A stretch of 64,000 bases of DNA from a candidate division FCPU426 bacterium. GTDB lineage: Bacteria > Oederibacteriota > Muellerivitia > Muellerivitales > Muellerivitaceae. Below the pieces are notes generated by a model. The model ran no database searches and was not told the DNA's origin. It saw nothing but the letters and a program-made list of their open reading frames with translations. Shown in pieces: positions 1,985-55,385 of the stretch. The DNA is taken from NCBI GenBank assembly GCA_003152075.1, contig PLZG01000093.1, positions 15,445-79,444 of the forward strand, read 5' to 3'. The first letter of the stretch is position 1. The number at the start of each line of letters is the position of its first letter. A program made the position numbers and the translations under genes.

Positions 1985-2002
1985 TTATGACAAGGATCAT
2001 AA
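1985..2002. promoter_or_regulatory. CRP/FNR-type palindrome TTATGAC-aagg-ATCATAA about 215 bp upstream of the cyc2-like gene
   Basis: Near-perfect inverted repeat with 5-N4-5 architecture (TGAC-N4-ATCA core). It is closely related to the site upstream of the cox operon (TTATGAG-ataa-ATCATAA). Confidence 0.35.
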
Positions 2003-2218
2003 AAAGATTTTGACCAATGAAAAGAGGGCGTTTTCGAGTGGGGGCGAGGTGATTTTTGATCCCTCCGTATTTTTTACTGATCCTCCCGTCATTAAATCGG
2101 CATTTCCCACGGACGAATTCTTTTTTCTACGTAAGTAAAATCCTCCTGAAATTGCGAAAAGCTTCTCAACTGAGCGGATCGCATATTTTGTCGAAGAAAT
2201 CTTGGGAGGAGAGAATCG

Positions 2219-3487
2219 ATGATGAAAACCCTGAAGTGGCTGGCCTTAGGAATCGTTTTAACTCTGTTTTGTTCGCAGGGGGCAATGGCCGTACCGATGT
2301 TCGCGAGGATGTACAGTTACAATTGCACCATGTGCCACGATCCGGGTTATGGCCAATTGAATAAGTTCGGGTACAATTTCCGCGCGGCCGGTTACCGAAT
2401 CCCCGCTGACATAGGGAAGGACATGAACGGCGGGAAGTTCGACATGACCAATTACATCGCCGCCCGATATTCCGCCGGTGGCAGCCTTAAAACCACTTCT
2501 AACGCCAATGGTGCTCCCACACCCGACAACGCCAGTTTCACCTTGGGGGGTGCCAGCATCTTTCTCGGAGGGGGAATCAGCAAGAATTTTTTCTCCTACA
2601 GTGAATTGGGCTTGGGAAACGGAACCAACATTTTCTCGGGAACAGCCCCCAATTTAAACAACGCTAAGATTGGATTTGTCACCGGAAGCGAAAACCAATT
2701 CTTTACGGTGAGAATCGGTAAATTCGGCGCCGATGGTTTCGGCGGATCGGACAGAGGTCCAGTGGGAAACTCGACCATCTCTTCTGCGATAAAGCCCACC
2801 GGAACCGGCTTGGAGTTGGGATATACCTACCAGGATACCCGAATCACGTTGGGTTTCTTTGACGGGATTCAAAATCCTCAAGTCACCGGTCTCGTGACTA
2901 GCAATTCAAAAGCGGTTACTTCCAGCAGCGTCCAAGGCCCCACCGCCGACTCCAATAACTCGAAGGACATCCAGCTGTTCGTCAATCAATTCATCGGTGA
3001 TGACGGGCTGGCTGTGAACGCAGTTTATTACAATGGGTTCAACGCCTCGGTTGGCGCGACCGCCGCGGCGGGCGGAACCGGTGACGCGGTTGGCCAAGAG
3101 TACTTCAACACGGCCATCTTCATCTCTTCTCCCATCGTTAAGAAGCTGGGCATCAAGGTAGGCGCGGAAATGGGCGCGACCAATATAGGAATTTTCCCAA
3201 CCACCGGAATTGTCGGCCCCACTAACGGCGGCTTTTTCGGCGAATTGGATTACGCGATGGACGACCTTACCCCCTTGGTCTTCCGTTACGACTATACAAC
3301 AACCGACTTCAACACTTTGTACACGGACACGCAGAAATTCACCCTGGGTGCCCTTTTACCCTTCGTCGAACAGGTTTACATGAACCCAACCTTCGCTTTG
3401 ACGATGAACAACGCCGGGTTAGTCAACGGTGCAGATGCTTACAACAACATCTATACGTTTACTGATTCATTAGCCGTATTCTTTTAA
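2219..3487 (+). CDS. cyc2: Cyc2-like fused monohaem c-type cytochrome / outer-membrane beta-barrel porin
   Basis: Signal peptide (MMKTLKWLALGIVLTLFCSQGAMA). A single CxxCH (CTMCH) lies within 20 aa of the mature N-terminus. The remaining ~380 aa is G/T/N/Y/F-rich with alternating amphipathic strands and ends in an aromatic residue (..AVFF), which is typical of beta-barrel OMPs. The N-terminal motif is paralogous to ORF 47633..49012. Acidithiobacillus Cyc2 and Leptospirillum Cyt572 have this architecture. Confidence 0.6.
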   Translation: MMKTLKWLALGIVLTLFCSQGAMAVPMFARMYSYNCTMCHDPGYGQLNKFGYNFRAAGYRIPADIGKDMNGGKFDMTNYIAARYSAGGSLKTTSNANGAPTPDNASFTLGGASIFLGGGISKNFFSYSELGLGNGTNIFSGTAPNLNNAKIGFVTGSENQFFTVRIGKFGADGFGGSDRGPVGNSTISSAIKPTGTGLELGYTYQDTRITLGFFDGIQNPQVTGLVTSNSKAVTSSSVQGPTADSNNSKDIQLFVNQFIGDDGLAVNAVYYNGFNASVGATAAAGGTGDAVGQEYFNTAIFISSPIVKKLGIKVGAEMGATNIGIFPTTGIVGPTNGGFFGELDYAMDDLTPLVFRYDYTTTDFNTLYTDTQKFTLGALLPFVEQVYMNPTFALTMNNAGLVNGADAYNNIYTFTDSLAVFF

Positions 3488-3564
3488 GAAGAGGGCATAC
3501 GGTGAGCCACTATAAAAGTGGCCCACTAAAAAATCTTAGATTCAAACTAACCAAGGAGTCGTTT

Positions 3565-3957
3565 ATGAAAAATCATCTCAGAGAACATGCAGGATTCGCC
3601 GCGATATTCTTTTCGCTGGCCCTATTCCTCCTGGCCTTTTCTGTGGCCCGGAGCGAGGATTTGGCCGCCGGCAAGAAAATCTTCGAGGGAAAATGTGCCC
3701 AATGCCATGGCAAGGACGCCAAGGGCGTGGTCAAAATGGCCAAGGTTCTAAAAGTGGAACCTGTGCTGATTGACCTTACCCGTGACGAGGCGGTCAAGCT
3801 ATCCAATGCGGACAAGGTAAAAACCGTAACCGAAGGCAATAAAAAGATGCCGAAATACAAAGGAAAACTCACAGATGAACAGATTGGACAGGTAGTCCAA
3901 TATCTGGAATCATTGCAAGGGGCTGGAAAAAAAACTAATAAAACAAAAGCTCGATAA
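3565..3957 (+). CDS. Periplasmic monohaem class-I cytochrome c (paralogue 1 of 3)
   Basis: RBS AAGGAG precedes the ATG at 3565. Signal peptide is followed by CAQCHGKDAKG (CxxCH) and a downstream Met ligand (KKMPKY). It is about 60% identical to ORF 4247..4603. An intrinsic terminator follows. Confidence 0.85.
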   Translation: MKNHLREHAGFAAIFFSLALFLLAFSVARSEDLAAGKKIFEGKCAQCHGKDAKGVVKMAKVLKVEPVLIDLTRDEAVKLSNADKVKTVTEGNKKMPKYKGKLTDEQIGQVVQYLESLQGAGKKTNKTKAR

Positions 3958-4016
3958 GGGCGGAGAAAAGAAAAAATAATAGGGGTTCACTCATCTCTCT
4001 CCTTAAAGCTTCACGA

Positions 4017-4048
4017 AAAGGGTCGGCCCCAAACCGGCCCTTTTCTTA
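4017..4048 (+). terminator. Rho-independent terminator after cytochrome c paralogue 1
   Basis: aaaaGGGTCGGCCCCaaaCCGGCCCttttctt: a GC hairpin followed by a T-run. Confidence 0.6.
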
Positions 4049-4246
4049 ATCGGGAGGTCATTTTTAGCAAGTATTCCAACAGGAGCGGATCACCCCAAGG
4101 CCAGGAAAAAGGGGTTTTGTTTAGTGTCAAGGAAAAGGCGGAGATTTAATTCCACTTTTTCTTAGGTTAAATGGGCAGAGTCTTGAAAATCCATGGGCAT
4201 CAAGCGATGATGACCCAGATTTTGAAAAGACAAACAGGGAGGACTT

Positions 4247-4603
4247 ATGCGCTGGTTTTTATTACTGGTTGGCGGCTTGATTCTTATTGCAGGAAACAAT
4301 GTTTGGGGCGCGGAAACCGCTGATCCCGGCAAGAAGCTTTTCGAGTCCAAGTGCGCCCAGTGTCACGGGAAAGACGCAAAAGGCCAACCCAAGATGGCAC
4401 CCGTCCTCATGGTAGAGCCGGCATTGATCGACTTAACGAGGGCCGACGCAGCCAAACTTTCCTTTGCCGAAAAAGTCAAAATTGTGACCAACGGGAAAAA
4501 TAAAATGTTGAAGTTCAAGAAAAAACTGACGGACGAACAGATTCAACAAGTGGTTAAATACGTGGAATCACTTCAAGGAGTTAGTGCCGGAAAGAAAAAA
4601 TAA
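4247..4603 (+). CDS. Periplasmic monohaem cytochrome c (paralogue 2)
   Basis: Signal peptide, CAQCHGKDAKG, Met ligand (NKMLKF). RBS GGGAGG sits upstream and a terminator downstream. Confidence 0.85.
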   Translation: MRWFLLLVGGLILIAGNNVWGAETADPGKKLFESKCAQCHGKDAKGQPKMAPVLMVEPALIDLTRADAAKLSFAEKVKIVTNGKNKMLKFKKKLTDEQIQQVVKYVESLQGVSAGKKK

Positions 4604-4633
4604 TTTTTTCGCCAACCTCTTTCCATCCAACAG

Positions 4634-4666
4634 AAAGACCGGTCCCGGACCGGCTTTTTGTTTTTA
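4634..4666 (+). terminator. Rho-independent terminator after cytochrome c paralogue 2
   Basis: GACCGGTCCcGGACCGGC hairpin followed by TTTTTGTTTTT. Confidence 0.6.
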
Positions 4667-4836
4667 GCCAACCGTTTAAAATATTGTTTAGTTCGTCGTT
4701 TATATGTGCTGCGTCATATTGAACATCTGGTGGACATTTTAAAATTTCTTAACTTAGGCGGGGTTTCGACCCGTTTGATTTTAAACACAACGAGCGGAAA
4801 ATTTTATTCTGTTCGGCCATTATCAAGGAGGTTCGC

Positions 4837-5229
4837 GTGATGAATTTCAGGATAAAACACGCTTGTGTTTTTTCAGTTTTCACTCTCTTGTCTTTTTTAA
4901 TCCCCGCCCTTTCCCGGGCTCAGGGAAGCAACATGGAGTTTGGAAAAAAATATTTCGATGGGAAATGCGCCCGTTGCCATGGAAAAGACGGGGCAGGAAA
5001 CCCCAAGATGACCCAATTATTAAATACCGATTTGAAAAAAATAAATCTTCATCGAGACGAGATCCGCCATATGTCTGTCATCCAAATCGAGGCGATAATC
5101 GACAGCGGCAAGCATCGGATGCCGAAATACGGTGGAAAATTAACGGATTCACAAATCCATGATATAGCCTCCTACGTTAAATTTTTGATCAGAAACGAAG
5201 CCAAGAAGGAAGAAAAGACATCTAACTAA
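4837..5229 (+). CDS. Periplasmic monohaem cytochrome c (paralogue 3, more divergent)
   Basis: Signal peptide, CARCHGKDGAG, Met ligand (HRMPKY). It has its own AT-rich promoter region and RBS AAGGAGG. It is followed after 10 bp by the Rieske gene, so it is probably co-transcribed with the bc complex. Confidence 0.8.
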   Translation: MMNFRIKHACVFSVFTLLSFLIPALSRAQGSNMEFGKKYFDGKCARCHGKDGAGNPKMTQLLNTDLKKINLHRDEIRHMSVIQIEAIIDSGKHRMPKYGGKLTDSQIHDIASYVKFLIRNEAKKEEKTSN

Positions 5230-5239
5230 GGAGAGATTA

Positions 5240-5743
5240 ATGTGCCCGTCCGATAATAAACCGAATCAACCCGAAAACCCCCAACGCCGGACGTTTCTCA
5301 TCGCCCTCATCACGGCTATGGGTGGATTCATCAGCTTTGTTTTGGGCGGTTCCGGCCTTTTTTATTTCCTCTCCCCCGCCTGGCGGAGCAAAAAGGAAGA
5401 TTGGGTGGAAGTAGGTCCGGTGGACAGCGTAAAAGAGGGCGACCCGGTTAAACTGGATTACGTCAAACGCAAGATGGACGGCTGGAATGTTATCGAGAGC
5501 CCCAGTTCCGTATGGGTAGTCCAACAAAAAGGAGAGTGGGTTGCCTATGACCCCCACTGCACCCATTTGGGCTGTCCTTACCGCTGGGATGCTTCCAAAC
5601 AGGCTTTTCTCTGCCCCTGTCACGGTGGGGTTTTCACTAAAGATGGCAATGTAGTCTCCGGGCCCCCTCCCAAACCCCTGAATCGCTTCCCCGTGAAGGT
5701 CGAGGGCGGGACCATTTACGTCCTGCCGGAGGGGATCGCCTAA
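5240..5743 (+). CDS. Rieske [2Fe-2S] iron-sulfur subunit of a cytochrome bc/b6f-type complex
   Basis: N-terminal TM anchor. Rieske boxes CTHLGCP and CPCHGGVF. RBS AAGGAGAG. The stop overlaps the start of the cytochrome b gene (ATGA). Confidence 0.85.
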   Translation: MCPSDNKPNQPENPQRRTFLIALITAMGGFISFVLGGSGLFYFLSPAWRSKKEDWVEVGPVDSVKEGDPVKLDYVKRKMDGWNVIESPSSVWVVQQKGEWVAYDPHCTHLGCPYRWDASKQAFLCPCHGGVFTKDGNVVSGPPPKPLNRFPVKVEGGTIYVLPEGIA

Positions 5744-7374
5744 TGAAAACTATTCTCGATTGGCTCGACGAACGCACCGGCTGGCGCAAAATCAAGGAAG
5801 TCATCCTGGACCGGCATATCCCCAAGGGTGTGGACTGGCGTTACACCCTAGGAAGCGTCACTCTTTTCTTCTTCGTTCTACAAGTAGTCACCGGCATCCT
5901 TTTGGCCATGCATTACTCCCCCTCCCCCGATCATGCCTATGACTCGGTAAAGTACCTTTCGAAGGAAGTCCCAATGGGGGGCTTCTTGAGGAGTTTACAC
6001 AAATGGGGCGCCACAGGAATGGTGGTGACGGTGTTCCTGCATATGCTTCGGGTGTTTTTCATGGGGGCCTATAAGTATCCCCGGGAAGTCACATGGCTCT
6101 CCGGAATCCTTCTCTTTTTCTTTGTGATCGGTTTTGGGTTTACCGGTTATCTTCTCCCCTGGGACCAGAAAGCCTATTGGGCCACCACCGTGGGCGCCCA
6201 TATGGTGGAACAAGTTCCTTATTTTGGCGCTGGCCTGGCGAAAATCATGAAAGGCGGCCAGGATTTGGGCGCCGTCACCTTGGCGCGGTTTTATGCCATC
6301 CACGTGCTGGTTTTCCCCGCCTTGACTCTCCTCTTCATGGTTATCCATCTTTTCCTGGTGGTTTGGCACGGAATCTCCGCTCCACCGGAGCGCGAAACTC
6401 CTTCGACCGATCGCAGGGATCCGAACTGGAAAACCCGCCTTCAGGCCCGCTACCTGGAACTCAAGTCCCAGGGAAAATCTTTCTGGCCCTATATCATCTT
6501 TAAGGACACCGTGGCGGTTACCTTGGTCTTCCTCATTGTCCTAGGCGTAGCCCTGTGGAAAGGTGCGGAGCTGGAGGATTTGGCCAACCCCACCGACACT
6601 ACCTATAACCCCCGGCCCGAGTGGTATTTCCTTTCGGTATTCCAATTGCTGAAATATTTCCCCGGCAAACTGGAAGCTTTCGCCATCGTCCTGTTGCCGC
6701 TGATTGTCGTCACACTATTGTTCGCCCTCCCCTTCCTGGATAAAGGGCCCCGGAGGCACCCGGCCGACCGCAAATGGCTGGTGGCGGCCGGTTGGATGGC
6801 CGTATTGGGTTTAATCGTTTTGACAGTCCAAGGCGCCTACACGCCCTTGACCAATCCCGTCGGCGAAAAAAACCCAATGGTCATGGAAGGAAAGCGTCTT
6901 TACGGAGACCTCCACTGCGAGTATTGCCACACCTTGCACGGCCACGGAGGAACAGTTGGCCCGGTCCTGGATGAAGTCGGCATACGCCGCAACCAGGATT
7001 GGCTGGCCAACCACTTCCGAAACCCCAAAAAAGTAACGCCTGGAACCAAGATGCCCAACTTCAATCTTTTGGATGGCGAGGTGGAATCCCTGGTGGCTTA
7101 CATGAGCACCTTGGGGGCGGGAACATTCACGGCGAAGGCCCCAGGGCTCTTCGAGGAAAACTGCGCTACCTGTCATAAATTCCATGGGGTAGGCGAGGAA
7201 ATCGCTACCGATTTGACCCATATCGCGGGAGTTCGGGACGCCGATTACATCGCGGCTTATATCAAGGATCCTATCAAGTTGAATCCCGATGCCGCCATGC
7301 AGGGCTTTTCCGACCAATTGACCGCGGACCAGATTAAGGACTTGGCCAATTACCTGTACCAGCAGGGTAAATAA
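5743..7374 (+). CDS. Cytochrome b (b6 plus subunit-IV-like) with fused C-terminal dihaem cytochrome c domain
   Basis: Eight predicted TM helices with paired His ligands in helices B/D (..HYSP.., ..LHMLRVFF.., ..HVLVFPAL.., ..HLFLVVWHG). The C-terminal ~170 aa carries two CxxCH motifs (CEYCH, CATCH). This domain is paralogous to the stand-alone dihaem cytochrome 49136..49798. Confidence 0.85.
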   Translation: MKTILDWLDERTGWRKIKEVILDRHIPKGVDWRYTLGSVTLFFFVLQVVTGILLAMHYSPSPDHAYDSVKYLSKEVPMGGFLRSLHKWGATGMVVTVFLHMLRVFFMGAYKYPREVTWLSGILLFFFVIGFGFTGYLLPWDQKAYWATTVGAHMVEQVPYFGAGLAKIMKGGQDLGAVTLARFYAIHVLVFPALTLLFMVIHLFLVVWHGISAPPERETPSTDRRDPNWKTRLQARYLELKSQGKSFWPYIIFKDTVAVTLVFLIVLGVALWKGAELEDLANPTDTTYNPRPEWYFLSVFQLLKYFPGKLEAFAIVLLPLIVVTLLFALPFLDKGPRRHPADRKWLVAAGWMAVLGLIVLTVQGAYTPLTNPVGEKNPMVMEGKRLYGDLHCEYCHTLHGHGGTVGPVLDEVGIRRNQDWLANHFRNPKKVTPGTKMPNFNLLDGEVESLVAYMSTLGAGTFTAKAPGLFEENCATCHKFHGVGEEIATDLTHIAGVRDADYIAAYIKDPIKLNPDAAMQGFSDQLTADQIKDLANYLYQQGK

Positions 7375-8249: not shown

Positions 8250-8434
8250 TTTCCCTCCTGAAAAACAGGGGATTCTCTTAATTTATTATCCCTTTTGAAC
8301 TAAAAGCTCATTATGAGTTGAGTCATAAAAAAGACCTCGGCCCTGCCCTATGATGAAAATGAACGGAAGAAAGATTGGATTCGAAACGAATTGAAATCGC
8401 TTGCAGCCTTCCGGATTTTTTCAACAAGGAGCAC

Positions 8435-8941
8435 AACATGACCCTGTCACAGCCCAAAAGCCTTTTGGAATTGAACGAGATTCACCGCGAAATTGAGGAT
8501 ATGTTTTATTGGCACCAAGCTGCCCTGTTGAAGGCCGACTTTACCGCCGCAAAAAATCTCTTGAAGGAGTATGAAGAAGTCGTCCTCAACCACATGAAAG
8601 AGGAGGAGGATATCTTACTTCCTCTCTACCGGGAGCGCGCCGGCAATATCCGGGGAGGGGACGCCGATATTTTTGTGCTGGAGCATAAAAAAATCTTGGA
8701 ATGGTTGGGCCGGTTGAAATTACGCCTCTCACGTTTAAACCCACCCAACGTGGACACGAAAAACCTGATCGCCCTGCTGGACGACGAAGCCCATTTTAAG
8801 AAATTCATCGAACACCATACGTTACGGGAGAATCGGATTTTTTATCCCGAGATTGAAAGAATTGTAAACGAAAAAGAGAAGGGTTATCTTTTGCGGCTTT
8901 TAACTTTCTCCCCGGAGGAAAAACCGCCCACCAAAGCATGA
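8435..8941 (+). CDS. Hemerythrin HHE cation-binding domain protein
   Basis: Spaced His/Glu ligand pattern (H..E, HxxxE, FIEHH..E) typical of hemerythrin-like O2/NO-binding domains. The start was moved to the Met 6 nt after RBS AAGGAG. Confidence 0.6.
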   Translation, partial: NMTLSQPKSLLELNEIHREIEDMFYWHQAALLKADFTAAKNLLKEYEEVVLNHMKEEEDILLPLYRERAGNIRGGDADIFVLEHKKILEWLGRLKLRLSRLNPPNVDTKNLIALLDDEAHFKKFIEHHTLRENRIFYPEIERIVNEKEKGYLLRLLTFSPEEKPPTKA

Positions 8942-9010: not shown

Positions 9011-9802
9011 ATGAAAAAGTCTTATTTCTTCGCCCTAGTCGGCCTGGCCCTCGGGGCCGGCGCCCCCGTTGGTGCCTTTTTATTGCGGTGCGTCACCCCT
9101 ACTTTTCCTTTTTCCCTTTTCTACCGTCAGGAGATGGTGGAACATGGTTTCTTTTACATCTATATGCTGGTGGGCACTTGCCTGGTTTTCTCCATTTTCG
9201 GTTTTTTCATCGGTCGCAGCGAGGATTTGCTTATCCACAAGGACGTAATTCTATCCAAAGAGGTATTGACCGATCCCTTGACGGGCCTGGGCAACCACCG
9301 TTTTCTCCACGATACCTTCAAAGTCGAATTCCGCCGGCATGTCACCAGCCGCCAGCCTATTTCCTGCCTAATGTTGGACCTGGATCACTTCAAAGTAATC
9401 AATGACACCTACGGCCATCCCTTCGGTGATTATGTGCTGAAACAATTCGCCGGTCTGGTGAAAAGATCCATTCGGGTGGACGACGTGGCGGCCAGGTACG
9501 GCGGCGAGGAATTCTTATGTATCCTGCCCAATTGCGACCAGGACCAGGCCAGGACGGTGGCGGAAAGGATTCGCCGGGAGACGGAAAGACATTCCTTTTC
9601 CCATGGAGGGAAGAAGGTGAAAGTGACCGTCAGTCTTGGCGCCGTTACCAGTTACGAGAGCTCGGGGTTGAATTACCGCCAGCTCATCGCCTTGTCAGAC
9701 CAGGCCCTCTACGAGGCAAAGAAAAAAGGCCGAAACCAGGTGGTTCAAACAACCCTTCAGATGATGAAAAAATACGCGAGGCGTAAATCTTCAAAAAGCT
9801 GA
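9011..9802 (+). CDS. Membrane-anchored GGDEF diguanylate cyclase
   Basis: Two N-terminal TM helices. GGDEF domain with active-site RYGGEEF and an upstream I-site-like RxxD. Confidence 0.8.
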   Translation: MKKSYFFALVGLALGAGAPVGAFLLRCVTPTFPFSLFYRQEMVEHGFFYIYMLVGTCLVFSIFGFFIGRSEDLLIHKDVILSKEVLTDPLTGLGNHRFLHDTFKVEFRRHVTSRQPISCLMLDLDHFKVINDTYGHPFGDYVLKQFAGLVKRSIRVDDVAARYGGEEFLCILPNCDQDQARTVAERIRRETERHSFSHGGKKVKVTVSLGAVTSYESSGLNYRQLIALSDQALYEAKKKGRNQVVQTTLQMMKKYARRKSSKS

Positions 9803-12837: not shown

Positions 12838-12924
12838 GACTCCTTTTTAATAGTTAATGGGCAGCTATGGCGCCACCCTTTTAGAAATTCAGACCGAACA
12901 AAATTATTTTTCTTTGTTGGTTTT

Positions 12925-14310: not shown

Positions 14311-14311
14311 A

Positions 14312-43997: not shown

Positions 43998-44024
43998 TCG
44001 GGAAAACCGTAAAGGAGAGCGGCC

Positions 44025-44564: not shown

Positions 44565-45028
44565 CCCGCAAACTTGAGGAACTCTCCCCTAAGGAAATGC
44601 TGGCCCTGGCCATTTCCATCGAGCAGTCCAACCAAAAGGCCCTGCATAACTTCTCCGAGATGTTCAACGGATATGACGATCAGGTTTCCAAGAATTTCGC
44701 GGAAATGTCCGTGGAGGAAGGCCGCCACGAGCAGATCTTACTGGAAAAATTCAAGAACATGTTCAAGGGGCCTGTTCCGGAAATAAGTAACTTCGACGTT
44801 GAGGAAGTGGTTGAAGCCATTGACTTTGACGACTCCGAGCACTTGATCTTCGACAGCTTGAAGGCCAAGCAAGTTTACCAATTGGCTTACGAGGCCGAAA
44901 AAAGGGCCAAGAGTTTTTACGAGAAGGCCATGAAAACCGTGAAAAACAAGGAATTGGCAGTGCTATTCAAGGAACTGGCCGCAATGGAAGGCGATCACGC
45001 GAATTGGCTGGAAAACAAAATCAAGTAG
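44561..45028 (+). CDS. Rubrerythrin/ferritin-like diiron protein (cytoplasmic)
   Basis: Two E...ExxH half-sites (..IEQ..EEGRH.. and ..EAEKRAK..EGDH..) in a ~150-aa four-helix-bundle-sized protein. No signal peptide. Confidence 0.6.
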   Translation: MTRKLEELSPKEMLALAISIEQSNQKALHNFSEMFNGYDDQVSKNFAEMSVEEGRHEQILLEKFKNMFKGPVPEISNFDVEEVVEAIDFDDSEHLIFDSLKAKQVYQLAYEAEKRAKSFYEKAMKTVKNKELAVLFKELAAMEGDHANWLENKIK

Positions 45029-45038
45029 GAGTGAAACC

Positions 45039-46568
45039 ATGAGTGAAGCCATCAACCCCAATCTAACTCCCCAATCCGTTCCAAGCCCGGTTCCCATACC
45101 CGCTGTCGTCCGGTCGGCCCCAACGCCGCTGACCCCTCCACCCGCCCGAGAGGGTTGGCGCATTGACCTTTTAAAGATGTTCCCCTTGCTCAAGTGGGTG
45201 GTGAAACAACGCTGGTTCCAGTTCGTGGTAATCCTTCCCAACCTATTCCTTTTCCTGGTCTTCTTGGCCGCCGGAATTTGGGGCACCCCGGTGGGCAACC
45301 GTAATATCTTGATCGTCTTCGTTTGGATTTTTTGGTGGTTCCTCCTCATCAGTGCCATGGTGCCCTTCCTTTCTCGCATTTGGTGCACCGTTTGTCCCTT
45401 CCCCTTCTTTGGAGAATGGATCCAACGTGGTTCCCTAACCACCCCCAAAATGGCCACTCCCGGCGCCAAAGGCACCAAGATTGGTATCAATCGCTATTTC
45501 GGTCTGAACCTGCGGTGGCCCAAGGCTCTTTCCAATATTTGGATGCAGAACATCGGTTTCCTCGGCCTTTGCACCTTCAGCGCCTTTTATCTCACCCGGC
45601 CCATCGTCAGCGTGATCGTCCTGGGCAGCTTGATCGTGGTGGCTACCGTGCTCCACGTGATTTATCGCCAAAGGGCCTTCTGCAATTACGTCTGTCCTGT
45701 CAGCGGTTTCTTAAGCCTTTATGCCATGAGTTCCATGACCGAGGTTCGTTCCAAGGATGCCGATGTCTGCCTGAAGTGCCACGACAAGAGCTGTCTGGTG
45801 GGAAGCGAGAGGGGTTGGGGATGTCCCTGGTTCAACTTCCCCAGCAAGATGGAACGAAATAACTATTGCGGCATGTGCATGGAATGCATTAAGTCCTGTC
45901 CCCATGACAACATGACTGTGAATCTGCGGCCCTTCGCCGCCGACACCAAACTCAAAGGCTACGATGAGGCCTGGAAGGCCTTTATCATGCTGGCCCTAGC
46001 CCTGGCCTACAGCGTCATTTACCTGGGCCCTTGGGCTTTTTTCAAAAACCTGGCCAACTACACCGAAAGCGGTGTGGGTCTTCCCGCCTTTATCGGCTAC
46101 GCCCTGGCCCTTTGGGCATTGCCTATGGTAATCATTCCGAGCATCTTCTCGGCATTCCACTGGATCGCGCGCAAGGTTGCTGGAGCCGAGCCGAAACCTT
46201 GGAAAGAATCTTTCCTACTCATGGCCTATCCCCTGGTTCCGCTGGGACTCTTGGCTTGGATCGCCTTCAGCGTACCCCTCATCTTTATCAACGGCAGCTA
46301 CATCCTGGTCACCATGTCCGATCCCTTTGGCTGGGGCTGGGACCTTTTCCATACAGCTCACACGGCCTGGTCGCCCGTCGTGCCTCAGTTGATGCCCACC
46401 ATCCAGGTCTTCATTATGGCCCTGGGGCTGATCCTCACCTTGAAATCGACTTTCAAACAAGCCGGGAAGGTTTATGAGGACGCCAAAGCCAAGGTGCGGT
46501 TCGCCGCCCCCATGGCGATTTTTTACACCGCCATCGTGCTGTTATTCATCCAGCTTTACGTGAACTGA
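45039..46568 (+). CDS. NapH/MauN/CcoG/NosR-C-like polytopic membrane protein with two [4Fe-4S] ferredoxin motifs
   Basis: Two membrane CxxCP motifs (IWCTVCPFP, FCNYVCPVSG), the hallmark of the NapH family. A soluble loop carries CLKCHDKSC...CPW and CGMCMECIKSCP cluster-binding motifs. About 10 TM helices. Pro-rich N-terminus. Confidence 0.65.
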   Translation: MSEAINPNLTPQSVPSPVPIPAVVRSAPTPLTPPPAREGWRIDLLKMFPLLKWVVKQRWFQFVVILPNLFLFLVFLAAGIWGTPVGNRNILIVFVWIFWWFLLISAMVPFLSRIWCTVCPFPFFGEWIQRGSLTTPKMATPGAKGTKIGINRYFGLNLRWPKALSNIWMQNIGFLGLCTFSAFYLTRPIVSVIVLGSLIVVATVLHVIYRQRAFCNYVCPVSGFLSLYAMSSMTEVRSKDADVCLKCHDKSCLVGSERGWGCPWFNFPSKMERNNYCGMCMECIKSCPHDNMTVNLRPFAADTKLKGYDEAWKAFIMLALALAYSVIYLGPWAFFKNLANYTESGVGLPAFIGYALALWALPMVIIPSIFSAFHWIARKVAGAEPKPWKESFLLMAYPLVPLGLLAWIAFSVPLIFINGSYILVTMSDPFGWGWDLFHTAHTAWSPVVPQLMPTIQVFIMALGLILTLKSTFKQAGKVYEDAKAKVRFAAPMAIFYTAIVLLFIQLYVN

Positions 46569-46583
46569 AAAGGGAGGATCAAC

Positions 46584-47552
46584 ATGAAATTCAGGGAAAT
46601 TATCTCCAGCGTCCTCGCGGTAGTGGCCGTGGTCGGGGCCTTCGCCATCCCCTTTGCTTACCAGAAGCAAAGAATGACCAGTGACCATAATGTGCGGACA
46701 ATCACCTTGACCGGTTTGGCCCCGCAAGGCATTTGGACCCAGGATGAGGTTAACGGCGGCAACTATTGGAAAGCCCATTTCAAACCCGCCGAGCTCAACC
46801 TTAAGGCGGGCGAACAGATCCGTCTGATCCTTCGCAGTGCCGACGTAGTCCACCGCTTTTACATGCCCCAATTGGGAATCGGCCCTATTGAGCTTGTTCC
46901 CGGCCATACCGAGGTGGTCAATTTCAAAGCCGACAAGGAGGGAATCTATCCTTACTACTGTACAGCTGTCTGCGGAGATTGCCATTTCCACATGCTAAAC
47001 ATGAGGGGATTGGTTGCCATCGGGAAAGAGATCGACACCAAAACCGCCCCCATCATCAATGAGCCTCTTTGCATGGTGAATATTACTTCGGACCTGCCTT
47101 CCTTCACGGACATCACCCAAAAGGGACATTTCCTGTTCCAAACCAGGGGTTGCGTCACTTGCCACGGGGTCGATGGCGCGGGAGGAATCCCCAACTTCAA
47201 TTACGTACGTGGTACCGTTCCGGCTTTGAACACCTTGGCCTCCAAGATGTCCCTGGGTAGCAAGGATGAAGTGGAGGCCTTTACTAAAGCCCTGGAAATA
47301 AAAGAAGGGCCCGCGAAGGACAAACCCGAACCAGGGCTCTCCAATTGGCCGCTTTCTTTCGCCCAGTATCAGTCGGTTGTAAAAACCATTGAGGGTGGCA
47401 GTCCGCCCTTGAAGGCTGACCCGAATGGGCCCGAACCTCCCCTTTTTATGCCGAGCTGGAAGGAAAACCTCGACCACGAACAGATCAATTCGATAATCGC
47501 CTTTCTTATCTCAGAGCAGAAGTTCGAGGAACACACGGGCTGGGGAAACTAG
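46584..47552 (+). CDS. Cytochrome oxidase subunit II-like CuA protein with fused C-terminal monohaem cytochrome c (caa3-type subunit II architecture, orphan)
   Basis: Single N-terminal TM. CuA signature H(RFYMP)...CTAVCGDCHFHM. C-terminal CVTCH plus Met ligand (LFMPSW). No subunit I gene is adjacent. Confidence 0.7.
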   Translation: MKFREIISSVLAVVAVVGAFAIPFAYQKQRMTSDHNVRTITLTGLAPQGIWTQDEVNGGNYWKAHFKPAELNLKAGEQIRLILRSADVVHRFYMPQLGIGPIELVPGHTEVVNFKADKEGIYPYYCTAVCGDCHFHMLNMRGLVAIGKEIDTKTAPIINEPLCMVNITSDLPSFTDITQKGHFLFQTRGCVTCHGVDGAGGIPNFNYVRGTVPALNTLASKMSLGSKDEVEAFTKALEIKEGPAKDKPEPGLSNWPLSFAQYQSVVKTIEGGSPPLKADPNGPEPPLFMPSWKENLDHEQINSIIAFLISEQKFEEHTGWGN

Positions 47553-47632
47553 TAGAATCTCGTCGGTAACCGGGCGCGGGTGGCGCGCTAATTAAAGCTG
47601 AACAGTAAATTTGTAACCTTGGGAGGGTGTAA

Positions 47633-49012
47633 ATGAGTAATCGTTCAATAAAAGCGATCCTGATCGGGATTTTAGGATGTATTGGTTTGATTGTCTGCGC
47701 GGCTCCCGCCCAGGCATTGCCAACCTTTGCCCGGCAGACAGGCATGTCCTGCGCGGCCTGCCACACGGTTTATCCCGAACTGACGACTTACGGGAGAACC
47801 TTCAAGCTCAACGGCTACACCACCAACAATTCCGATTCACTCAAGGACGGTGCGGATGAGACGGGGTACCGGTTGAATATCAGCAACACTCCCCCGATCG
47901 CGGCCATGCTTCAGGTTGCCGACGTATTTACCCATGCTCCTCAAACAGGCGGTTTAGTGGCCGCCAACTCGGATAACAACGGCACTTTGGAGTTTCCCAG
48001 TCAGTTCAGTCTTTTCTACGCGGGAGCCATCTCCCCGAAGATGGGGGCCTTCGTCCAGTTTACTTACGACTCTGGCTCAGGCTCTTTTGGCATGGACAAT
48101 ACGGACATCCGTATTGCCGACCGTTTTCAAGTGGCCAACACCGATCTGGTCTTGGGCTTAACCCTCAATAACAATCCCACCGTACAGGATATTTTTAACA
48201 ACATTCCGGCTTGGGGCTTCCCCTATGCGACAGGCAAATCGGCCATTACTCCCGCAACCGCCAGCATGATCGAGAGTCTGGGTGGTAGTGTCGGAGGATT
48301 GGGTCTTTACGCCTTTTGGAACCAGCTTTTATACGCTGAAATTTCAGCATACCGCACGGCTCCCCAAGGCATGGAAGCCGTGGGTGCCCCAGACATCCAG
48401 GGTTACGCTCCTTATTGGAGGGTGGCTTTGACCAAGGATTTCGAGACCAATTCCTTTGAAATCGGCGCTTTCGGGATGAACGCTAATACTTATCCAAACA
48501 GCGGGGATCCCACTCTGTTCACTCAAAATAATGTGGACGATATTGGGGTAGACGGTCAGTTCCAGTTCGTGGGCAAGGAACATCAATTGACGGTCAAAGG
48601 AAGTTGCATTTGGGAAAACCAGAAATTGGGCTATTCCAGTCCTGTAACGGTTATCGACCCCAGCGGACCGACGACCACCATCAGCTCAGTCGCGGCCAAT
48701 GCTACCGACACCTTCACGACCGCCAAGGCGGATATCACCTATTATTACGACCGTAAAGTCGGGGCAACGGTGGGCTATTTCACCAACTATGGTTCCGGCG
48801 ACACGGGCCTTTATTCCACCGCCAGCGGAACACCCGATAGCGCCGGCTGGGTGATCGAGGTGAATTACGTGCCTTGGTATAACACGAAATTCTCCTTGCA
48901 ATACACTATGTACGATAAGTTCAACGGTTCCGTGAATAATTACGATACCGTCCCTGGCCGTAACGCTTCGGATAACAACACCCTAATGGCAATGGCTTGG
49001 TTGATGTACTAA
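47633..49012 (+). CDS. cyc2: Cyc2-like fused monohaem cytochrome / outer-membrane beta-barrel porin (paralogue 2)
   Basis: Signal peptide. CxxCH (CAACH) within ~15 aa of the mature N-terminus. The N-terminal motif LPTFARQTGMSCAACH..TYGRTFKLNGY parallels VPMFARMYSYNCTMCH..KFGYNFRAAGY of the gene at 2219. The ~400-aa G/T/N/Y-rich barrel ends ..AWLMY. Confidence 0.6.
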   Translation: MSNRSIKAILIGILGCIGLIVCAAPAQALPTFARQTGMSCAACHTVYPELTTYGRTFKLNGYTTNNSDSLKDGADETGYRLNISNTPPIAAMLQVADVFTHAPQTGGLVAANSDNNGTLEFPSQFSLFYAGAISPKMGAFVQFTYDSGSGSFGMDNTDIRIADRFQVANTDLVLGLTLNNNPTVQDIFNNIPAWGFPYATGKSAITPATASMIESLGGSVGGLGLYAFWNQLLYAEISAYRTAPQGMEAVGAPDIQGYAPYWRVALTKDFETNSFEIGAFGMNANTYPNSGDPTLFTQNNVDDIGVDGQFQFVGKEHQLTVKGSCIWENQKLGYSSPVTVIDPSGPTTTISSVAANATDTFTTAKADITYYYDRKVGATVGYFTNYGSGDTGLYSTASGTPDSAGWVIEVNYVPWYNTKFSLQYTMYDKFNGSVNNYDTVPGRNASDNNTLMAMAWLMY

Positions 49013-49072: not shown

Positions 49073-49135
49073 TATGACCGCTATCATCTTTTCCCTTACC
49101 TTTCAGACTAAAATGGATCTATCAGGGAGAGTTCA

Positions 49136-49798
49136 ATGGCACTAAACAAGATGACTGTCCCAAATGAAAAAAAGCGGTTCTTCACACCCTTATTAATAGA
49201 ATGGCTGGGGGCCTTGGTTTTATTCTCCTTACTCGCCCCTTCCTTAGCCTTGCCCCCGGCCCAAACTACCCCGGTAAATTCAGTCCACAAAAAAGACCCC
49301 CTTGTCTTGAAAGGCAAACAGCTTTACGCCGACTTGAGGTGCTTTTACTGCCACAAACTCAAGGGTCGGGGTGGTACGGTCGGCCCAGCCCTGGACAACG
49401 TGGGTTTCAGGCGCACCCAGGAATGGATGGCCCACCACTTCCGTGATCCCAAGGAAGTCTCTCAGGGAACCAAAATGATCAACCTCAAGCTGAAAGACAG
49501 CCAGGTTCAGGCCCTGGTGGCTTACATGAATAGCCTGGGAGGCTATACCTTCACCCCCCAAGCTCCGGATCTTTATAAAGCTAACTGTGCCGCTTGTCAT
49601 TCCCTCAACGGCGAGAGCGCGAATGCCACCGACTTGTCCAAGGAAGGAAAATTCCGGGATGTGGACTTCCTCATGGATTACATCCGGGATCCCGCCAACG
49701 TGAACTCGGAGGCCAAAATGATAAAATTTGAGGGTGTTTTGACCGAAGCCCAAATCAAGGATATCGCCGCTTACCTTTACAAGCAGAGCCGCAAATAA
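49136..49798 (+). CDS. Periplasmic dihaem cytochrome c (c4-like)
   Basis: Signal peptide; CFYCH and CAACH. About 45% identical over its length to the C-terminal domain of the cytochrome b at 5743..7374 (shared ..KGRGGTVGPALDNVGFRRTQEWMAHHFRDPKEVSQGTKM..). Confidence 0.8.
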   Translation: MALNKMTVPNEKKRFFTPLLIEWLGALVLFSLLAPSLALPPAQTTPVNSVHKKDPLVLKGKQLYADLRCFYCHKLKGRGGTVGPALDNVGFRRTQEWMAHHFRDPKEVSQGTKMINLKLKDSQVQALVAYMNSLGGYTFTPQAPDLYKANCAACHSLNGESANATDLSKEGKFRDVDFLMDYIRDPANVNSEAKMIKFEGVLTEAQIKDIAAYLYKQSRK

Positions 49799-49974
49799 AG
49801 GCGGTTTTCAATCCGCTAAATGATCTGGATCATATTCCCCTTTTCCGCGAAACATTAGGATACAACCTGTATTGCAGTTCGGGACCAAAACCCCGAGCTT
49901 GAACGGCGGAAAAGTATCAAATAAAAAAGGAGGCGGTCTTAACCAAAGTTAAAATCGACTCTGTTGGAATTTGG

Positions 49975-51444: not shown

Positions 51445-51519
51445 TTTGTGCCCCCGATGGTGGATTTGATTTTCTCTCTCTTGGAGTTTTTTTCACATGA
51501 CATGGATCACATTCAACTT

Positions 51520-51533
51520 ATGACTTTGGTCAT
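51520..51533. promoter_or_regulatory. Palindrome ATGAC-tttg-GTCAT about 80 bp upstream of RIC paralogue B
   Basis: TGAC-N4-GTCA core. Same architecture and distance as the site upstream of RIC paralogue A. Confidence 0.4.
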
Positions 51534-54043: not shown

Positions 54044-54080
54044 TCCTTGTCAGTTGAAGGTGGATATTGTAAAAGGGCTT

Positions 54081-54116
54081 AAAAAAAGCCCCGGACCGCT
54101 TGGTTCCGGGGCTTCC
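54081..54116 (-). terminator. Intrinsic terminator (minus strand) located 40 nt upstream of the small Cys4 ORF start
   Basis: On the minus strand: GAAGCCCCGGAAccaagcGGTCCGGGGCTTTTTTTAAG. It either ends a long pirin 3' UTR or an sRNA, or acts as an attenuator in the leader of the Cys4 ORF. Confidence 0.55.
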
Positions 54117-54326
54117 AGCAACATCTTCAGCAAGATTCATTGATGGTTATGGGCCTTTGCCCAGCGTCATTGAAACGCAACCCTTGAACCTTTCCAACGA
54201 TTGTACCGACCAACCTCCTACTAACATCTGAAGGACCCGACCTTCGGGGCCTCACCAACAACAACTCAGCAACAAACATCAACAACCTAACTGAACTCAC
54301 CGGCTTCGCCAGGCTGGATTCCTTGA

Positions 54327-54470
54327 CGGTTCGGGACCGCAGTCCCCGCAACACCCTTAAGGGCGCTTCAACCGGAACCCTTACCAGTTCCACCGCTCTC
54401 GACGGCCGTGTTCCTCATCGGTTTGGGACCTCAGTCCCCGCTGCACCTCTAAGGTGCCTTGATTTGGAAC
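54327..54470. repeat. Two ~52-bp imperfect direct repeats (about 80% identical), each containing a GGGAC-N4-GTCCC hairpin, in a 530-bp noncoding region
   Basis: R1 is at 54327-54378 and R2 at 54419-54470 (cggtTYgggaccKcagtccccgcWRcacc.YtaaggK.cc...). An AAC-rich tract lies at 54255-54292. No plausible ORF on either strand. Confidence 0.45.
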
Positions 54471-54577
54471 AGTTCCTACGGTTCTATTAATACAACTCTT
54501 TTTAATAAAACTTTATGATTTGAATCAGGTTGGTTTTTTTAAGGTAATTCATGCTGGGATGCTTTTTTACCCCGATT

Positions 54578-55279
54578 TTATCCAGGCAGGTCAAAGTAAA
54601 GAAAGTGGGAATCCTTCTCAGCTAGAACGTTAAAGGAGTTTTCCTCCCAAATGGCAAGTCCGTCACCTTCGGAAAGCTTCTGGTCGCCGACCTTCAATTC
54701 GCCGCTGGCCAATTGAATCCAGCCTTTGCGATCCCAATGCAGGGTCAGGTCCAGCTTCGTCCCGGCCGTGGGCCGAGCCAAGTATAAATTAGCGTCCTGA
54801 TTGAGGGTAATGGACCCTTCCCGACCGTCCTTGGAGGCCGCCAGAAAGAGATTTCCTGTAGCTAATTCCTTCGAAAAATCCTTTTGTGCGTAGCCGGGCT
54901 TCAGACCGTCCTCCGCCGGCATGATCCAAATCTGAAAAAAGTGCGTTTCCTGGTCCTTCAAGTGGTTATGCTCCGAATGCCTTACCCCCGTTCCGGCGCT
55001 CATGCGCTGTACTTCCCCAGGCAAAATGGTTGATGCCGTTCCCATGGAATCCTTGTGATCCAGGGCCCCGTTTAAGACGTAAGAGATGATTTCCATGTCC
55101 CGATGACCGTGGGTGGGGAAGCCCGTCCCCCCCTGGATACGGTCCTCATTGATCACCCGCAAATCGCCGAATCCCATTTCGGTTTTGTCAAAGTACTCGC
55201 CAAATGAAAAGGTATGCCGGGACTTGAGCCATCCCATGTCGGTCAAACCGCGTTTGTCGGACTGCCTGAGTGTCATCAT
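54578..55279 (-). CDS. Pirin-family bicupin protein
   Basis: N-terminal cupin metal site ..GFPTHGHRDMEIISYVLNGALDHKDSMG.. (HxH...E...H). Both cupin domains are present. Start set at MMTLRQ. Confidence 0.85.
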   Translation of the reverse strand: MMTLRQSDKRGLTDMGWLKSRHTFSFGEYFDKTEMGFGDLRVINEDRIQGGTGFPTHGHRDMEIISYVLNGALDHKDSMGTASTILPGEVQRMSAGTGVRHSEHNHLKDQETHFFQIWIMPAEDGLKPGYAQKDFSKELATGNLFLAASKDGREGSITLNQDANLYLARPTAGTKLDLTLHWDRKGWIQLASGELKVGDQKLSEGDGLAIWEENSFNVLAEKDSHFLYFDLPG

Positions 55280-55371
55280 ATCGGTCTCCTTTGGCCCTAG
55301 GATTAAGGAGCAGGCCACCCTATTGCAAGCCCTGGAACAGAATGAAGGCGATGATAAATAATGACCTCCCC

Positions 55372-55385
55372 ATGACAGCCGTCAT
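55372..55385. promoter_or_regulatory. Palindrome ATGAC-agcc-GTCAT about 90 bp upstream of pirin
   Basis: TGAC-N4-GTCA core. An extra half-site ATGAC lies 11 nt upstream. Confidence 0.4.

Follow-up and report, generated by a model that had tools for sequence, protein, structure and literature searches.

The question raised by a 64,000-nucleotide stretch of DNA from a candidate division FCPU426 bacterium (contig PLZG01000093.1, positions 15,445 to 79,444 of the forward strand; hereafter the window) is which regulator owns a set of short palindromes that recur ahead of its iron-oxidation, terminal oxidase and nitric oxide (NO) repair genes. The preliminary description of this DNA listed seven such inverted repeats, took them to be Crp/Fnr-type sites and assigned all of them to the Crp/Fnr regulator encoded in the window, here named REG1. 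We report that the palindromes fall into two classes that differ in the base next to the TGA of the half-site (A in class A, G in class G), and that a second Crp/Fnr gene, REG2, is located approximately 6 kb to the left of the window on the same contig. The reading that we favour, and which we consider fairly probable, is that of two overlapping regulons, where class G boxes would be bound by REG1 and class A boxes by REG2, in both cases with class II activation. Loci of relatives that were used for comparison are designated by L numbers.

All seven reported palindromes were found at their positions with identical letters. The palindrome is a true promoter element, and its enrichment exceeds what had been described. 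Specifically, ATGA-N6-TCAT occurs 14 times in the window while 0.67 copies (maximum 2) were expected from shuffled sequences, i.e. an approximately 20-fold enrichment; TGAY-N4-RTCA occurs 18 times compared with 2.5 +/- 1.6 in dinucleotide-preserving shuffles, and ATGAC-N4-GTCAT with at most one mismatch 10 times (0.9 expected). When all dyads composed of a 4-mer, a spacer of N0-10 and the reverse complement were enumerated in the window without bias, ATGA-N6-TCAT ranked first among the non-coding dyads (approximately 0.8 expected) and TATG-N8-CATA second. The conserved core is yTATGAy-N4-rTCATAr, i.e. ATGA-N6-TCAT, and the sites at 1985 and 17775, which had been regarded as imperfect, are therefore perfect matches. 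It had been pointed out that a similar frequency inside coding regions would speak against a regulatory role. Of the 14 copies, 12 are non-coding (binomial P = 1e-9 for 12 or more, since only 12.6% of the window is non-coding according to the curated gene map), and the matches at 6700 and 28158, deep within coding sequence, look like chance occurrences. Together, approximately 20 boxes are positioned ahead of approximately 17 transcription units; about 12 of the intergenic ones (8313, 13318, 30445, 32376, 34627, 38769, 49074, 49820, 51497, 54515, 58668 and 63357) and one over the start codon of REG1 (20806) had not been listed before. The distance between box centre and start codon is 39-225 nucleotides (nt), mostly 55-110, and the spacers differ between boxes, so that duplication of a single repeat does not account for them.

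For analysis of promoter geometry the boxes were oriented towards the neighbouring gene(s) and scanned for -10-like hexamers. Of the 63 oriented box-gene pairs, 24 have a TAnnnT hexamer that begins exactly 29.5 nt from the centre of the box, compared with approximately one pair at other offsets. Independent metagenome loci gave the same peak, with 29 of 66 boxes in class A and 11 of 20 in the class G or hybrid group. None of 18 control TTGA/CTGA dyads has TAnnnT at 29.5 nt. A box at this distance from the -10 hexamer would be centred at -41.5 of the predicted transcription start, which is the class II architecture of CRP/FNR activators. By this geometry, the boxes are predicted Crp/Fnr class II promoter sites, which agrees with the type of palindrome originally proposed. 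In the window the exact 29.5-nt spacing is present ahead of the hemerythrin gene, orf134, ytfE-A, the ROK kinase and LPG_synthase_TM genes, the cupredoxin/Cyc2 operon, hyp125-NmrA, the P-type ATPase gene and the phosphoenolpyruvate carboxykinase (PEPCK) gene, as well as at box 49820. Near matches to a -10 element were detected for the H+-pyrophosphatase (H+-PPase) gene, the GerE gene, ytfE-B, nitronate monooxygenase (NMO)-like gene 1 (30.5 nt) and the di-haem cytochrome c gene (28.5 nt), and class II geometry was not found for the boxes at 1987, 17777, 32376 and 55372.

REG1 (20818-21486, + strand) encodes a protein of 222 amino acids (aa) with matches to PF00027 (4e-24), PF13545 (4e-12) and PF00325 (9e-5); it has a cNMP_binding and an HTH_Crp_2 domain and belongs to the Crp/Fnr superfamily. 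The start previously given, 20806, adds MMGI to the protein that begins with the ATG at 20818, which is probably the true start, as in most orthologues. As had been noted, REG1 is without the Cys cluster of FNR: its cysteines are only three in number and scattered, and an N-terminal extension is absent. It is not FNR proper (NF008365 score 59.8 vs a threshold of 228) and falls below all curated subfamily cut-offs, with best PDB matches to Thermus CRP (4EV0; 1.4e-18), FNR (3.6e-14) and DNR (2.3e-13). A genome-contig search with REG1 gave five loci (FCPU426 and Acidobacteria), a number too small for statistics, the orthologues being located on FCPU426-like and Acidobacteria contigs, and a homologue with 70% identity is present in a metagenome-assembled genome of candidate division FCPU426. 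The recognition helix GSVREVVSRAF is invariant among orthologues at 60-82% identity; helix differences among REG1 orthologues were for this reason ruled out as the origin of the box classes.

The genomic context ties REG1 to NO-related genes and to a particular box. Wherever the sequence extends to either side of the REG1 orthologue (ten loci, two phyla), ytfE is its neighbour, and other genes near REG1 in various relatives encode the quinol-dependent NO reductase qNorB, a NirK-like Cu-oxidase, nosZ clusters, DUF2249 proteins, hemerythrins and NMO-like proteins. The ytfE/REG1 intergenic region carries a box in 11 loci from the two phyla (class G in eight, A-flanked in two). The distance to the ATG of ytfE is 57-69 nt in eight loci (including L002, L013, L015, L016, L019 and L025) and 141 nt in L011; a class G-type box also adjoins REG1 in L005. 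The sequences of ytfE/REG1 boxes are cgTGACTCAAGTCAct, cgTGACTTAAATCAca, cgTGACCTAAGTCAtg, tgTGACTTAAGTCAtc (Acidobacteria), taGTGACttgaGTCACgg and ccGTGACCTAAGTCACcc, with the variant ctaTGACnnnAGTCGtag in Terriglobales, and the class G consensus is (T)GTGAC-TTAA-GTCAC(A), where the yTAA spacer is conserved near REG1. The full TGTGA half-site is present in L002 (norB), L015, L016 and L011. Boxes of the same type precede the qNorB (-71, -69), DUF2249 (-72), NirK-like and hemerythrin genes in relatives, and nosZ near REG1 has no box of its own. In the window the class G box GTGAC-TTAA-GTCAC (22269-22282; GTGACTTAAGTCAC) is the sole G/C-flanked box; its centre is 69 nt from ytfE-A, with TAAGCT at 29.5 nt towards ytfE-A, and it is the predicted REG1 site. 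The two genes ytfE-A and REG1 are convergent in the window and ytfE and REG1 are divergent in every relative examined; upstream of REG1, at approximately 20757-20768, there is a half-box, TTAAGTCAC, which looks like a relic of an ancestral divergent ytfE-REG1 box.

The footprint is kept from Acidobacteria to FCPU426 and we therefore take REG1 to bind class G. In Crp/Fnr proteins Arg180 co-varies with a G next to TGA (wTGTGA vs wyTTGA; Rodionov et al., PMC1274295), and the REG1 helix, V-R-E-V-V-S-R, has the CRP-type Arg180-Glu181 pair; the helix of Thermus CRP, RETVSR, follows the same rule. The box of HcpR1 of Desulfovibrio, TGTGA-N6-TCACA, also fits the Arg180-G rule (PMC5701242). With its R-E helix and GTGA-N6-TCAC boxes REG1 resembles HcpR1 in helix and box, and HcpR1-type control of hcp/frdX was not seen, there being no hcp gene in the window or in the REG1 loci. 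The proposal that the regulator is Dnr/NnrR-like holds in part. REG1 has no Cys cluster and is linked to ytfE, qNorB, NirK-like and nosZ genes, as expected from the genomic context of Dnr/NnrR proteins, but its box and its Arg180 helix differ from those of DNR and NnrR, which have helices without Arg180 and boxes of the types TTGAT-N4-ATCAA (DNR) and TTGCG-N4-CGCAA (NnrR) (PMC1274295). Proteins of this type are activated by NO, which DNR detects through bound haem. Hence, there is good evidence from comparison of sequences that REG1 binds the class G box as a Dnr/NnrR/HcpR1-type regulator of NO-related genes, and because of its gene neighbourhood and regulon it probably responds to NO or denitrification. 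A role as cAMP receptor was set aside on weak evidence, a by-eye alignment in which the position of the phosphate-binding Arg82 in CRP is occupied by Pro in a conserved FDDRPYPST loop.

A second Crp/Fnr gene was not detected by tblastn in the window and 16 REG1-centred loci (approximately 300 kb). It was found when the source contig was extended leftwards (L021; L021 coordinate = window coordinate + 7782): REG2, at L021:1229-1888 on the minus strand, encodes 219 aa. Its helix, T-V-E-T-C-I-R, is FNR-like with respect to Val180/Glu181/Arg185 and has Ile at the position of FNR Ser212, the residue that in FNR reads the outer T of TTGAT. REG2 is not FNR proper (NF008365 score 40.9 vs 228, and the cysteines are elsewhere) and no curated subfamily covers it. 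In 120 homologues with at least 59% identity the V-E-T-[C/S]-I-R helix is invariant, C72, C83, C84 and C93 are conserved to 100% and C85 to 72%; according to an alignment to Thermus CRP these cysteines replace the cyclic-nucleotide phosphate-binding cassette of the beta-roll. With four invariant cysteines, REG2 may hold an Fe-S or metal centre and hence sense O2, redox state or NO, and it is a candidate redox or O2 sensor of this kind.

REG2 is associated with class A. Its own promoter has a class A box, aatATGATatggATCATact (L021 1923-1936), with the centre 41 nt from the ATG and TAGGAT at 29.5 nt; from this arrangement, REG2 is predicted to activate its own transcription and to have a leaderless mRNA. 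Placement at -41 was also found at REG2 in L022, L026 and L030, and a G/A hybrid box further upstream (L021 2043; approximately -158 in L022 and L030) is kept in three contigs. REG2 has more than 270 homologues in soil and peat metagenomes, and a metagenome scan gave 80 loci related to it. All eight orthologues with at least 75% identity and available upstream sequence have a class A box within 200 nt upstream, as have many with 43-67% identity. In 369 kb of REG2 loci (at least 43% identity) there are 79 A-flanked vs 7 G-, 4 C- and 14 T-flanked dyads, and class A is enriched 10-20-fold in the 369 kb around the REG2 orthologues. One homologue with 60% identity, in L049, has the helix TTVESSIRTM, and its 20-kb locus holds no A-flanked and three T-flanked TTGA-N6-TCAA dyads; judging from this single locus, the flanking base may be determined by helix positions 183/184.

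Moreover, the two box classes separate with the two regulators. In the window class G is represented by the ytfE-A site only and class A by approximately 18 boxes, including the other six sites that had been reported. A-flanked dyads are absent from 102 kb of Acidobacteria loci with REG1 only, which have an identical REG1 helix and a single G-type box. Of the half-sites, 14 of 22 at REG1-proximal boxes and 1 of 38 at REG2-proximal boxes are of the G type (Fisher 2e-7), and the spacers are AT-richer at the REG1-proximal boxes (P = 3e-4). Both regulators occur in L025, each beside its own box class, and a single intergenic region of L013 combines a class A box directed at cox with a class G box directed at a NirK-like gene. 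The assignment of all seven sites to REG1 does not agree with this pattern, given that its orthologues are accompanied by G-flanked boxes with TTAA spacers whereas six of the seven sites are A-flanked with random spacers. That a different transcription factor might own the sites had been foreseen, and such ownership is probable for these six; the seventh, at ytfE-A, fits REG1. REG1 is the only Crp/Fnr regulator in the window, but not in its immediate surroundings. Which protein binds which class, in what direction it regulates and to which signal it answers are predictions from sequence.

The strongest alternative is the one first put forward, i.e. that REG1 alone, as one NO- or O2-responsive Dnr/NnrR-like protein, binds every box and tolerates either purine next to TGA (RTGAY-N4-RTCAY). 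It agrees with REG1 being the only Crp/Fnr gene in the window and the approximately 300 kb of REG1-centred loci, with the core TGAy-N4-rTCA and the -41.5 geometry common to both classes, and with the clustering of class A boxes around REG1 in several relatives. Moreover, the ytfE/REG1 box itself has A flanks in L009 and L004, and in L013, L005, L015 and L016 one of its halves has G and the other A. We nevertheless judge it unlikely. A at +/-7 and T at +/-8 are positively conserved, which goes beyond tolerance, and Arg180 proteins correlate with G at the former position (PMC1274295). The Acidobacteria regulators with the identical helix have the one G-type box and no class A box in 102 kb, a paralogue with a different helix is encoded approximately 6 kb outside the window and has class A at its own promoter in many genomes, and both the flank and the spacer statistics separate the two sets.

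Several points weigh against the assignment to two paralogues that we prefer. The entire case is comparative. The A-flanked ytfE/REG1 boxes of L009 and L004 occur despite the same REG1 helix, hybrid G/A boxes exist (38769, 32376 and 51497 in the window; L021 2043), and three of the sites originally reported, 1987 (Cyc2-like1), 17777 (cox) and 55372 (pirin), are without a -10 hexamer at 29.5 nt. The joint occurrence of class A and REG2 is subject to phylogenetic confounding, in that REG2 lineages probably carry REG1 too; L002 and L011, which have only G-type boxes near REG1, could still carry REG2. Finally, the AlphaFold2 model of REG2 (pLDDT 81.5) has low confidence in the cysteine loop, from which the cofactor is not inferable.

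An owner outside the Crp/Fnr family for some or all boxes is a much slimmer prospect. Candidates would be the Cys-rich LuxR/GerE solo protein (34729-35235) or a NarL-type response regulator (L021:7399-8052) that accompanies a HisKA_3 kinase (252-1850). DosR, NreC and ComA bind palindromes of the 5-N4-5 type, and the box of DosR, GGGAC-TTTA-GTCCC, resembles class G; furthermore, the GerE solo gene is a conserved member of the cluster in the window, L013 and L019 and has its own box at -95/-96, and box 1987 is situated between the kinase/response-regulator operon and Cyc2-like1. However, a TGA-N6-TCA core exactly at -41.5 is highly characteristic of class II promoters of Crp/Fnr proteins, a Crp/Fnr gene accompanies each class in many genomes, also in Acidobacteria loci where GerE is absent from the surrounding 10 kb, and the GerE orthologues are tied to the boxes only as targets. 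Fur, Rex, NsrR and LexA-type boxes are judged improbable on account of spacing or half-site. That the palindromes are non-regulatory, due to chance composition, a short dispersed repeat or sites related to restriction-modification, has nothing in its favour beyond the two coding-sequence matches (6700, 28158) and is effectively refuted by the approximately 20-fold excess over shuffles, the location of 12 of 14 copies in the 12.6% non-coding DNA, the variable spacers, the constant distance to the -10 hexamer and the retention of boxes ahead of orthologous genes where the surrounding intergenic DNA has diverged.

Under the two-paralogue reading, dimeric Crp/Fnr activators would bind boxes at approximately -41.5 of sigma-70-type promoters. 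REG1, Dnr/HcpR1-like and without Cys cluster, would act on class G, in the window on ytfE-A only, and in relatives on its own promoter and on ytfE, qNorB, NirK-like, DUF2249 and hemerythrin genes. REG2 most probably binds class A and appears to activate its own leaderless promoter. Its predicted regulon comprises the cupredoxin/Cyc2 operon, c-type cytochromes, cox, hemerythrin-GGDEF, O2-dependent desaturases, radical-SAM enzymes, the H+-PPase, PEPCK, an NMO-like gene and ytfE-B. The two regulators look cross-wired, with a class A box over the REG1 start and a G/A hybrid box upstream of REG2. A bolder version, which we put forward tentatively as possible rather than probable, is that REG2 founds an undescribed Crp/Fnr subfamily, with a four-Cys metal or Fe-S sensor in the former cyclic-nucleotide pocket, which by its recognition helix (Ile for FNR Ser212) reads TATGA and not TTGAT and serves as a global O2/redox switch that activates the Cyc2-type operon for extracellular Fe(II) oxidation in FCPU426, in a cascade with REG1 as an Arg180-type NO regulator. 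We found no description of a REG2-like arrangement of cysteines in a Crp/Fnr sensor domain. For the A-flanked box there was none in CRP/FNR surveys or in a full-text search that included spelling variants (which gave only the HcpR box TTGAC-N4-GTCAA and an ANR box).

The system is a variant of a well-known kind, and the mechanism first proposed was right in kind while the owner of six of the seven sites was probably wrong. In the FNR/ANR-DNR (Pseudomonas) and FnrP-NNR (Paracoccus) systems, an O2-sensing Fe-S protein of the Crp/Fnr family is accompanied by an NO-responsive paralogue without Cys cluster that controls nir/nor/nos genes. As in these systems, REG1 and REG2 are two Crp/Fnr paralogues with related 14-bp boxes, predicted activation from approximately -41.5 and signs of cross-regulation; the four-Cys paralogue would have a broad respiratory and metabolic regulon and the Cys-less one is associated with ytfE, norB, nirK and nosZ. 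Unlike there, the boxes are TATGAy-N4-rTCATA and TGTGAC-TTAA-GTCACA and not TTGAT-N4-ATCAA, and while ANR and DNR share one box, REG1 and REG2 are apparently separated by the base next to TGA. FNR has an N-terminal cluster (C20, C23 and C29 in E. coli) plus C122, whereas C72, C83, C84 and C93 of REG2 are in the beta-roll, and in contrast to DNR, REG1 has Arg180. The arrangement also resembles the class II CRP/FNR promoters of E. coli, where a dimer site at -41.5 replaces the -35 element, 29.5 nt from the -10; it differs from E. coli FNR sites in that the half-site flank is A or G and not T, and transcription starts are predicted here.

A pair of paralogues that acts in nitrosative stress is also known from Desulfovibrio, HcpR1 and HcpR2, the latter being an Fe-S protein (Rodionov 2005, PMC1274295; Cadby 2017, PMC5701242). 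REG1 shares Arg180/Glu181 with HcpR1 and a TGTGA-N6-TCACA box is predicted for it; in contrast to the HcpR pair there is no hcp, the REG1 targets would be ytfE, nor, nir and nos, and the phylum is unrelated. The predicted REG2 regulon, unlike that of HcpR2, is global and respiratory, and the box is different. With respect to iron oxidation, FixK controls the phototrophic Fe(II)-oxidation operon pioABC of Rhodopseudomonas palustris TIE-1 (PMC3050613), and the control of Cyc2 described so far is by RegBA in Acidithiobacillus (PMC5506826). The window resembles FixK-pioABC in having predicted Crp/Fnr-family control of outer-membrane Fe(II)-oxidation genes, which there depends on oxygen status, and differs from it in having a Cyc2-type fused cytochrome-porin within a cupredoxin operon instead of PioAB, and in regulator subfamily and box. 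To FixK-pioABC our data add a further putative instance in which Fe(II)-oxidation genes are under Crp/Fnr control, and they provide a regulatory map for an FCPU426-like candidate phylum without cultured member. In this map, Cyc2-type iron oxidation, cytochromes and oxidase, O2-dependent and O2-sensitive enzymes and two paralogues of the RIC/YtfE repair protein are predicted to respond jointly, divided between two Crp/Fnr paralogues by one flanking base of the box. It also illustrates that reading a regulon from a single window is limited, since the likely owner of most sites is encoded 6 kb outside.

Boxes ahead of the cupredoxin/Cyc2 operon, cox, NMO-like genes and ytfE-B are conserved in relatives. 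At the cupredoxin/Cyc2 operon the box is at -73 in L019, the same distance as in the window, at -229 in L018 and at -204 in L037, and L017 has a G-type box at -263. A cox box is present in L013 (-106) and near COX3 in L036, while the cox operon of L025 has none. In L009, a class A box precedes the orthologue of ytfE-B/PRTase (phosphoribosyltransferase) by 62 nt and a box precedes a P-type ATPase gene by 71 nt, and the B12/radical-SAM orthologue in L013 also has an upstream box. Boxes were found at desaturase genes in L013, L036 and L067, at hemerythrin/GGDEF genes in L023, L036, L044, L050 and L055, at GerE in L019 (-96) and at LPG_synthase_TM in L067; no orthologues of Cyc2-like1 were present among the fetched loci. 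The suggested co-regulation of iron-oxidation and oxidase genes with NO-repair genes is thereby supported as far as putative Crp/Fnr-type control is concerned, the boxes being shared and kept in relatives, but it would probably operate via two paralogues; the RIC paralogues are themselves split, ytfE-A having a class G box and ytfE-B class A boxes.

Of the remaining window boxes, that of the cupredoxin/Cyc2 operon (class A, 43216-43229) sits within a perfect palindrome, TATATGAC-atct-GTCATATA; the cupredoxinA ATG (43296) is 73 nt from the box centre and the -10, TATCTT (43252-43257), is at 29.5 nt, which makes it the predicted promoter of the operon. Between the HisKA_3 kinase gene and Cyc2-like1 there is the class A box ATGAC-aagg-ATCAT (1987-2000), 225 nt from the Cyc2-like1 ATG and without a -10 at 29.5 nt in either direction. 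Class A boxes with a -10 hexamer are located at 8313-8326 (TATGAT), ahead of the hemerythrin (8375-8941) and GGDEF (9011-9802) genes, and at 13318-13331 (TATACT), ahead of orf134 (12881-13285, -), which is followed by AurF-like and desaturase genes. The cox operon (13708-17626, -) has ATGAG-ataa-ATCAT (class A, 17777-17790) 157 nt from COX2, with no -10 at 29.5 nt, and NMO-like gene 1 (18027-19478, -) has ATGAT-ccac-ATCAT (class A, 19535-19548) at 69 nt, with an extended -10, TGgTAACGT, at 30.5 nt. The class A box ATGAT-gggc-ATCAT (20806-20819) covers the start codon region of REG1 and has a counterpart in L011 (10001-10014; ATGATggccGTCAT), a position that suggests repression or cross-regulation by the class A regulator.

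Further to the right, the H+-PPase gene (28010-30343, -) has a class A box at 108 nt (30445-30458; GAGAAT at 29.5 nt) and the B12/radical-SAM gene (30657-32291, -) the hybrid box ATGAT-atga-ATCAC (32376-32389) at 91 nt. The Cys-rich GerE/LuxR solo is encoded at 34729-35235 (+), ahead of a fatty-acid desaturase gene, and its gene has the box CTGAT-atac-ATCAT (34627-34640) at 95 nt. The hybrid box GTGAC-ccgg-ATCAT (38769-38782) has TAnnnT at 29.5 nt both ways, towards ROK (38817, +) and LPG_synthase_TM (38542, -). Hybrid boxes, with one G-type and one A-type half-site (38769, 32376 and 51497 in the window), might be targets of both regulators or, more speculatively, accommodate mixed dimers. A class A box (49074-49087; TAAAAT at 28.5 nt) is located 55 nt from the di-haem cytochrome c gene (49136-49798). 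For another class A box (49820-49833), with TAGGAT at 29.5 nt rightwards, no gene is called in that direction; its -10 faces the 3' end of the convergent PRTase/ytfE-B operon and the box may control an antisense transcript or a small RNA. The region between ytfE-B/PRTase (-) and hyp125/NmrA/hyp241 (+) holds two boxes of class A: 51497-51510, with GAAAAT towards ytfE-B, and 51520-51533, with TAAACT at 29.5 nt towards hyp125. The box ATGAT-ttga-ATCAG (54515-54528) is downstream of pirin (54578-55318, -), and the class A box ATGAC-agcc-GTCAT (55372-55385) is 60 nt from it, with no -10 at 29.5 nt towards pirin; from the latter box, CAATAT faces a called gene of 61 aa (55499-55684, +). Finally, a class A box between a VTT-domain gene (-) and the P-type ATPase gene (+) has TATCCT towards the ATPase (58668-58681), and one with TACCGT (63357-63370) is 64 nt from the PEPCK gene (61440-63299, -).

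The gene map was generated from Pfam and NCBIfam scans. The HisKA_3 kinase gene is divergent from Cyc2-like1, which begins a run (2219-7374, +) that continues with genes for three mono-haem c-type cytochromes, a Rieske protein and a cytochrome b/di-haem cytochrome c fusion; this run looks like a dedicated bc-type module. Next come the hemerythrin-GGDEF pair, the AurF-like and desaturase genes and the aa3-type cox operon, then the NMO-like gene, REG1 convergent with ytfE-A, pyruvate:ferredoxin oxidoreductase, the H+-PPase and the B12/radical-SAM gene, followed by the Cys-rich GerE solo with its desaturase, the ROK kinase and the second NMO-like gene. The cupredoxin/Cyc2 operon (43296-49012, +) encodes cupredoxinA, cupredoxinB, a rubrerythrin, a polytopic Fer4_5 protein, a COX2-like/cytochrome c protein and Cyc2-like2, and the gene order is the same in L017, L018 and L019. 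The remainder of the window holds the genes for the di-haem cytochrome c, ytfE-B with PRTase, NmrA, pirin, the P-type ATPase and PEPCK.

Cyc2 proteins are recognised by a signal peptide, a single CXXCH with AXPXFAR[Q/K][T/Y] upstream and PXL four residues downstream, a length of at least 365 aa and a 16-strand barrel (Keffer et al. 2021, PMC8406198). Cyc2-like2 (47633-49012, 459 aa) has ALPTFARQT...CAACH-TVY-PEL, with PEL at +4, and its AlphaFold2 model has 16 long strands (pTM 0.80) and matches OmpF/OprP-type porins; it agrees with every one of the published Cyc2 criteria (PMC8406198). Cyc2-like1 (2219-3487, 422 aa) has AVPMFARMY, with M for Q/K, a single CTMCH and no PXL at +4, and is 36% identical to Cyc2-like2 over 50 N-terminal residues; in view of its deviating signature it is labelled as putatively Cyc2-like only. 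The product of ytfE-A (21463-22206, -), with ScdA_N and Hemerythrin domains and a TIGR03652 score of 228.5 vs a cut-off of 204.7, is by these matches classified as a RIC/YtfE di-iron Fe-S repair protein. ScdA_N and hemerythrin are also present in ytfE-B, which scores 175.4, under 204.7, and is classified as a divergent RIC paralogue.

The GerE/LuxR solo is a protein of 168 aa with a cysteine-rich N-terminus (C17, C32, C36, C44, C48 and C52), which could make it a metal or redox sensor; its gene is kept beside the same cluster in L013 and L019. The two NMO-like paralogues, of approximately 480 aa, are encoded at 18027-19478 (-) and 40735-42210 (-). In L009, L011, L018 and L019 a conserved NMO-like module with DUF2249, a 446-aa protein with a faint COX1 match, FeS_assembly_P, hemerythrin and YtfE is located downstream of REG1-type boxes, and it is an uncharacterised NO-associated gene set.

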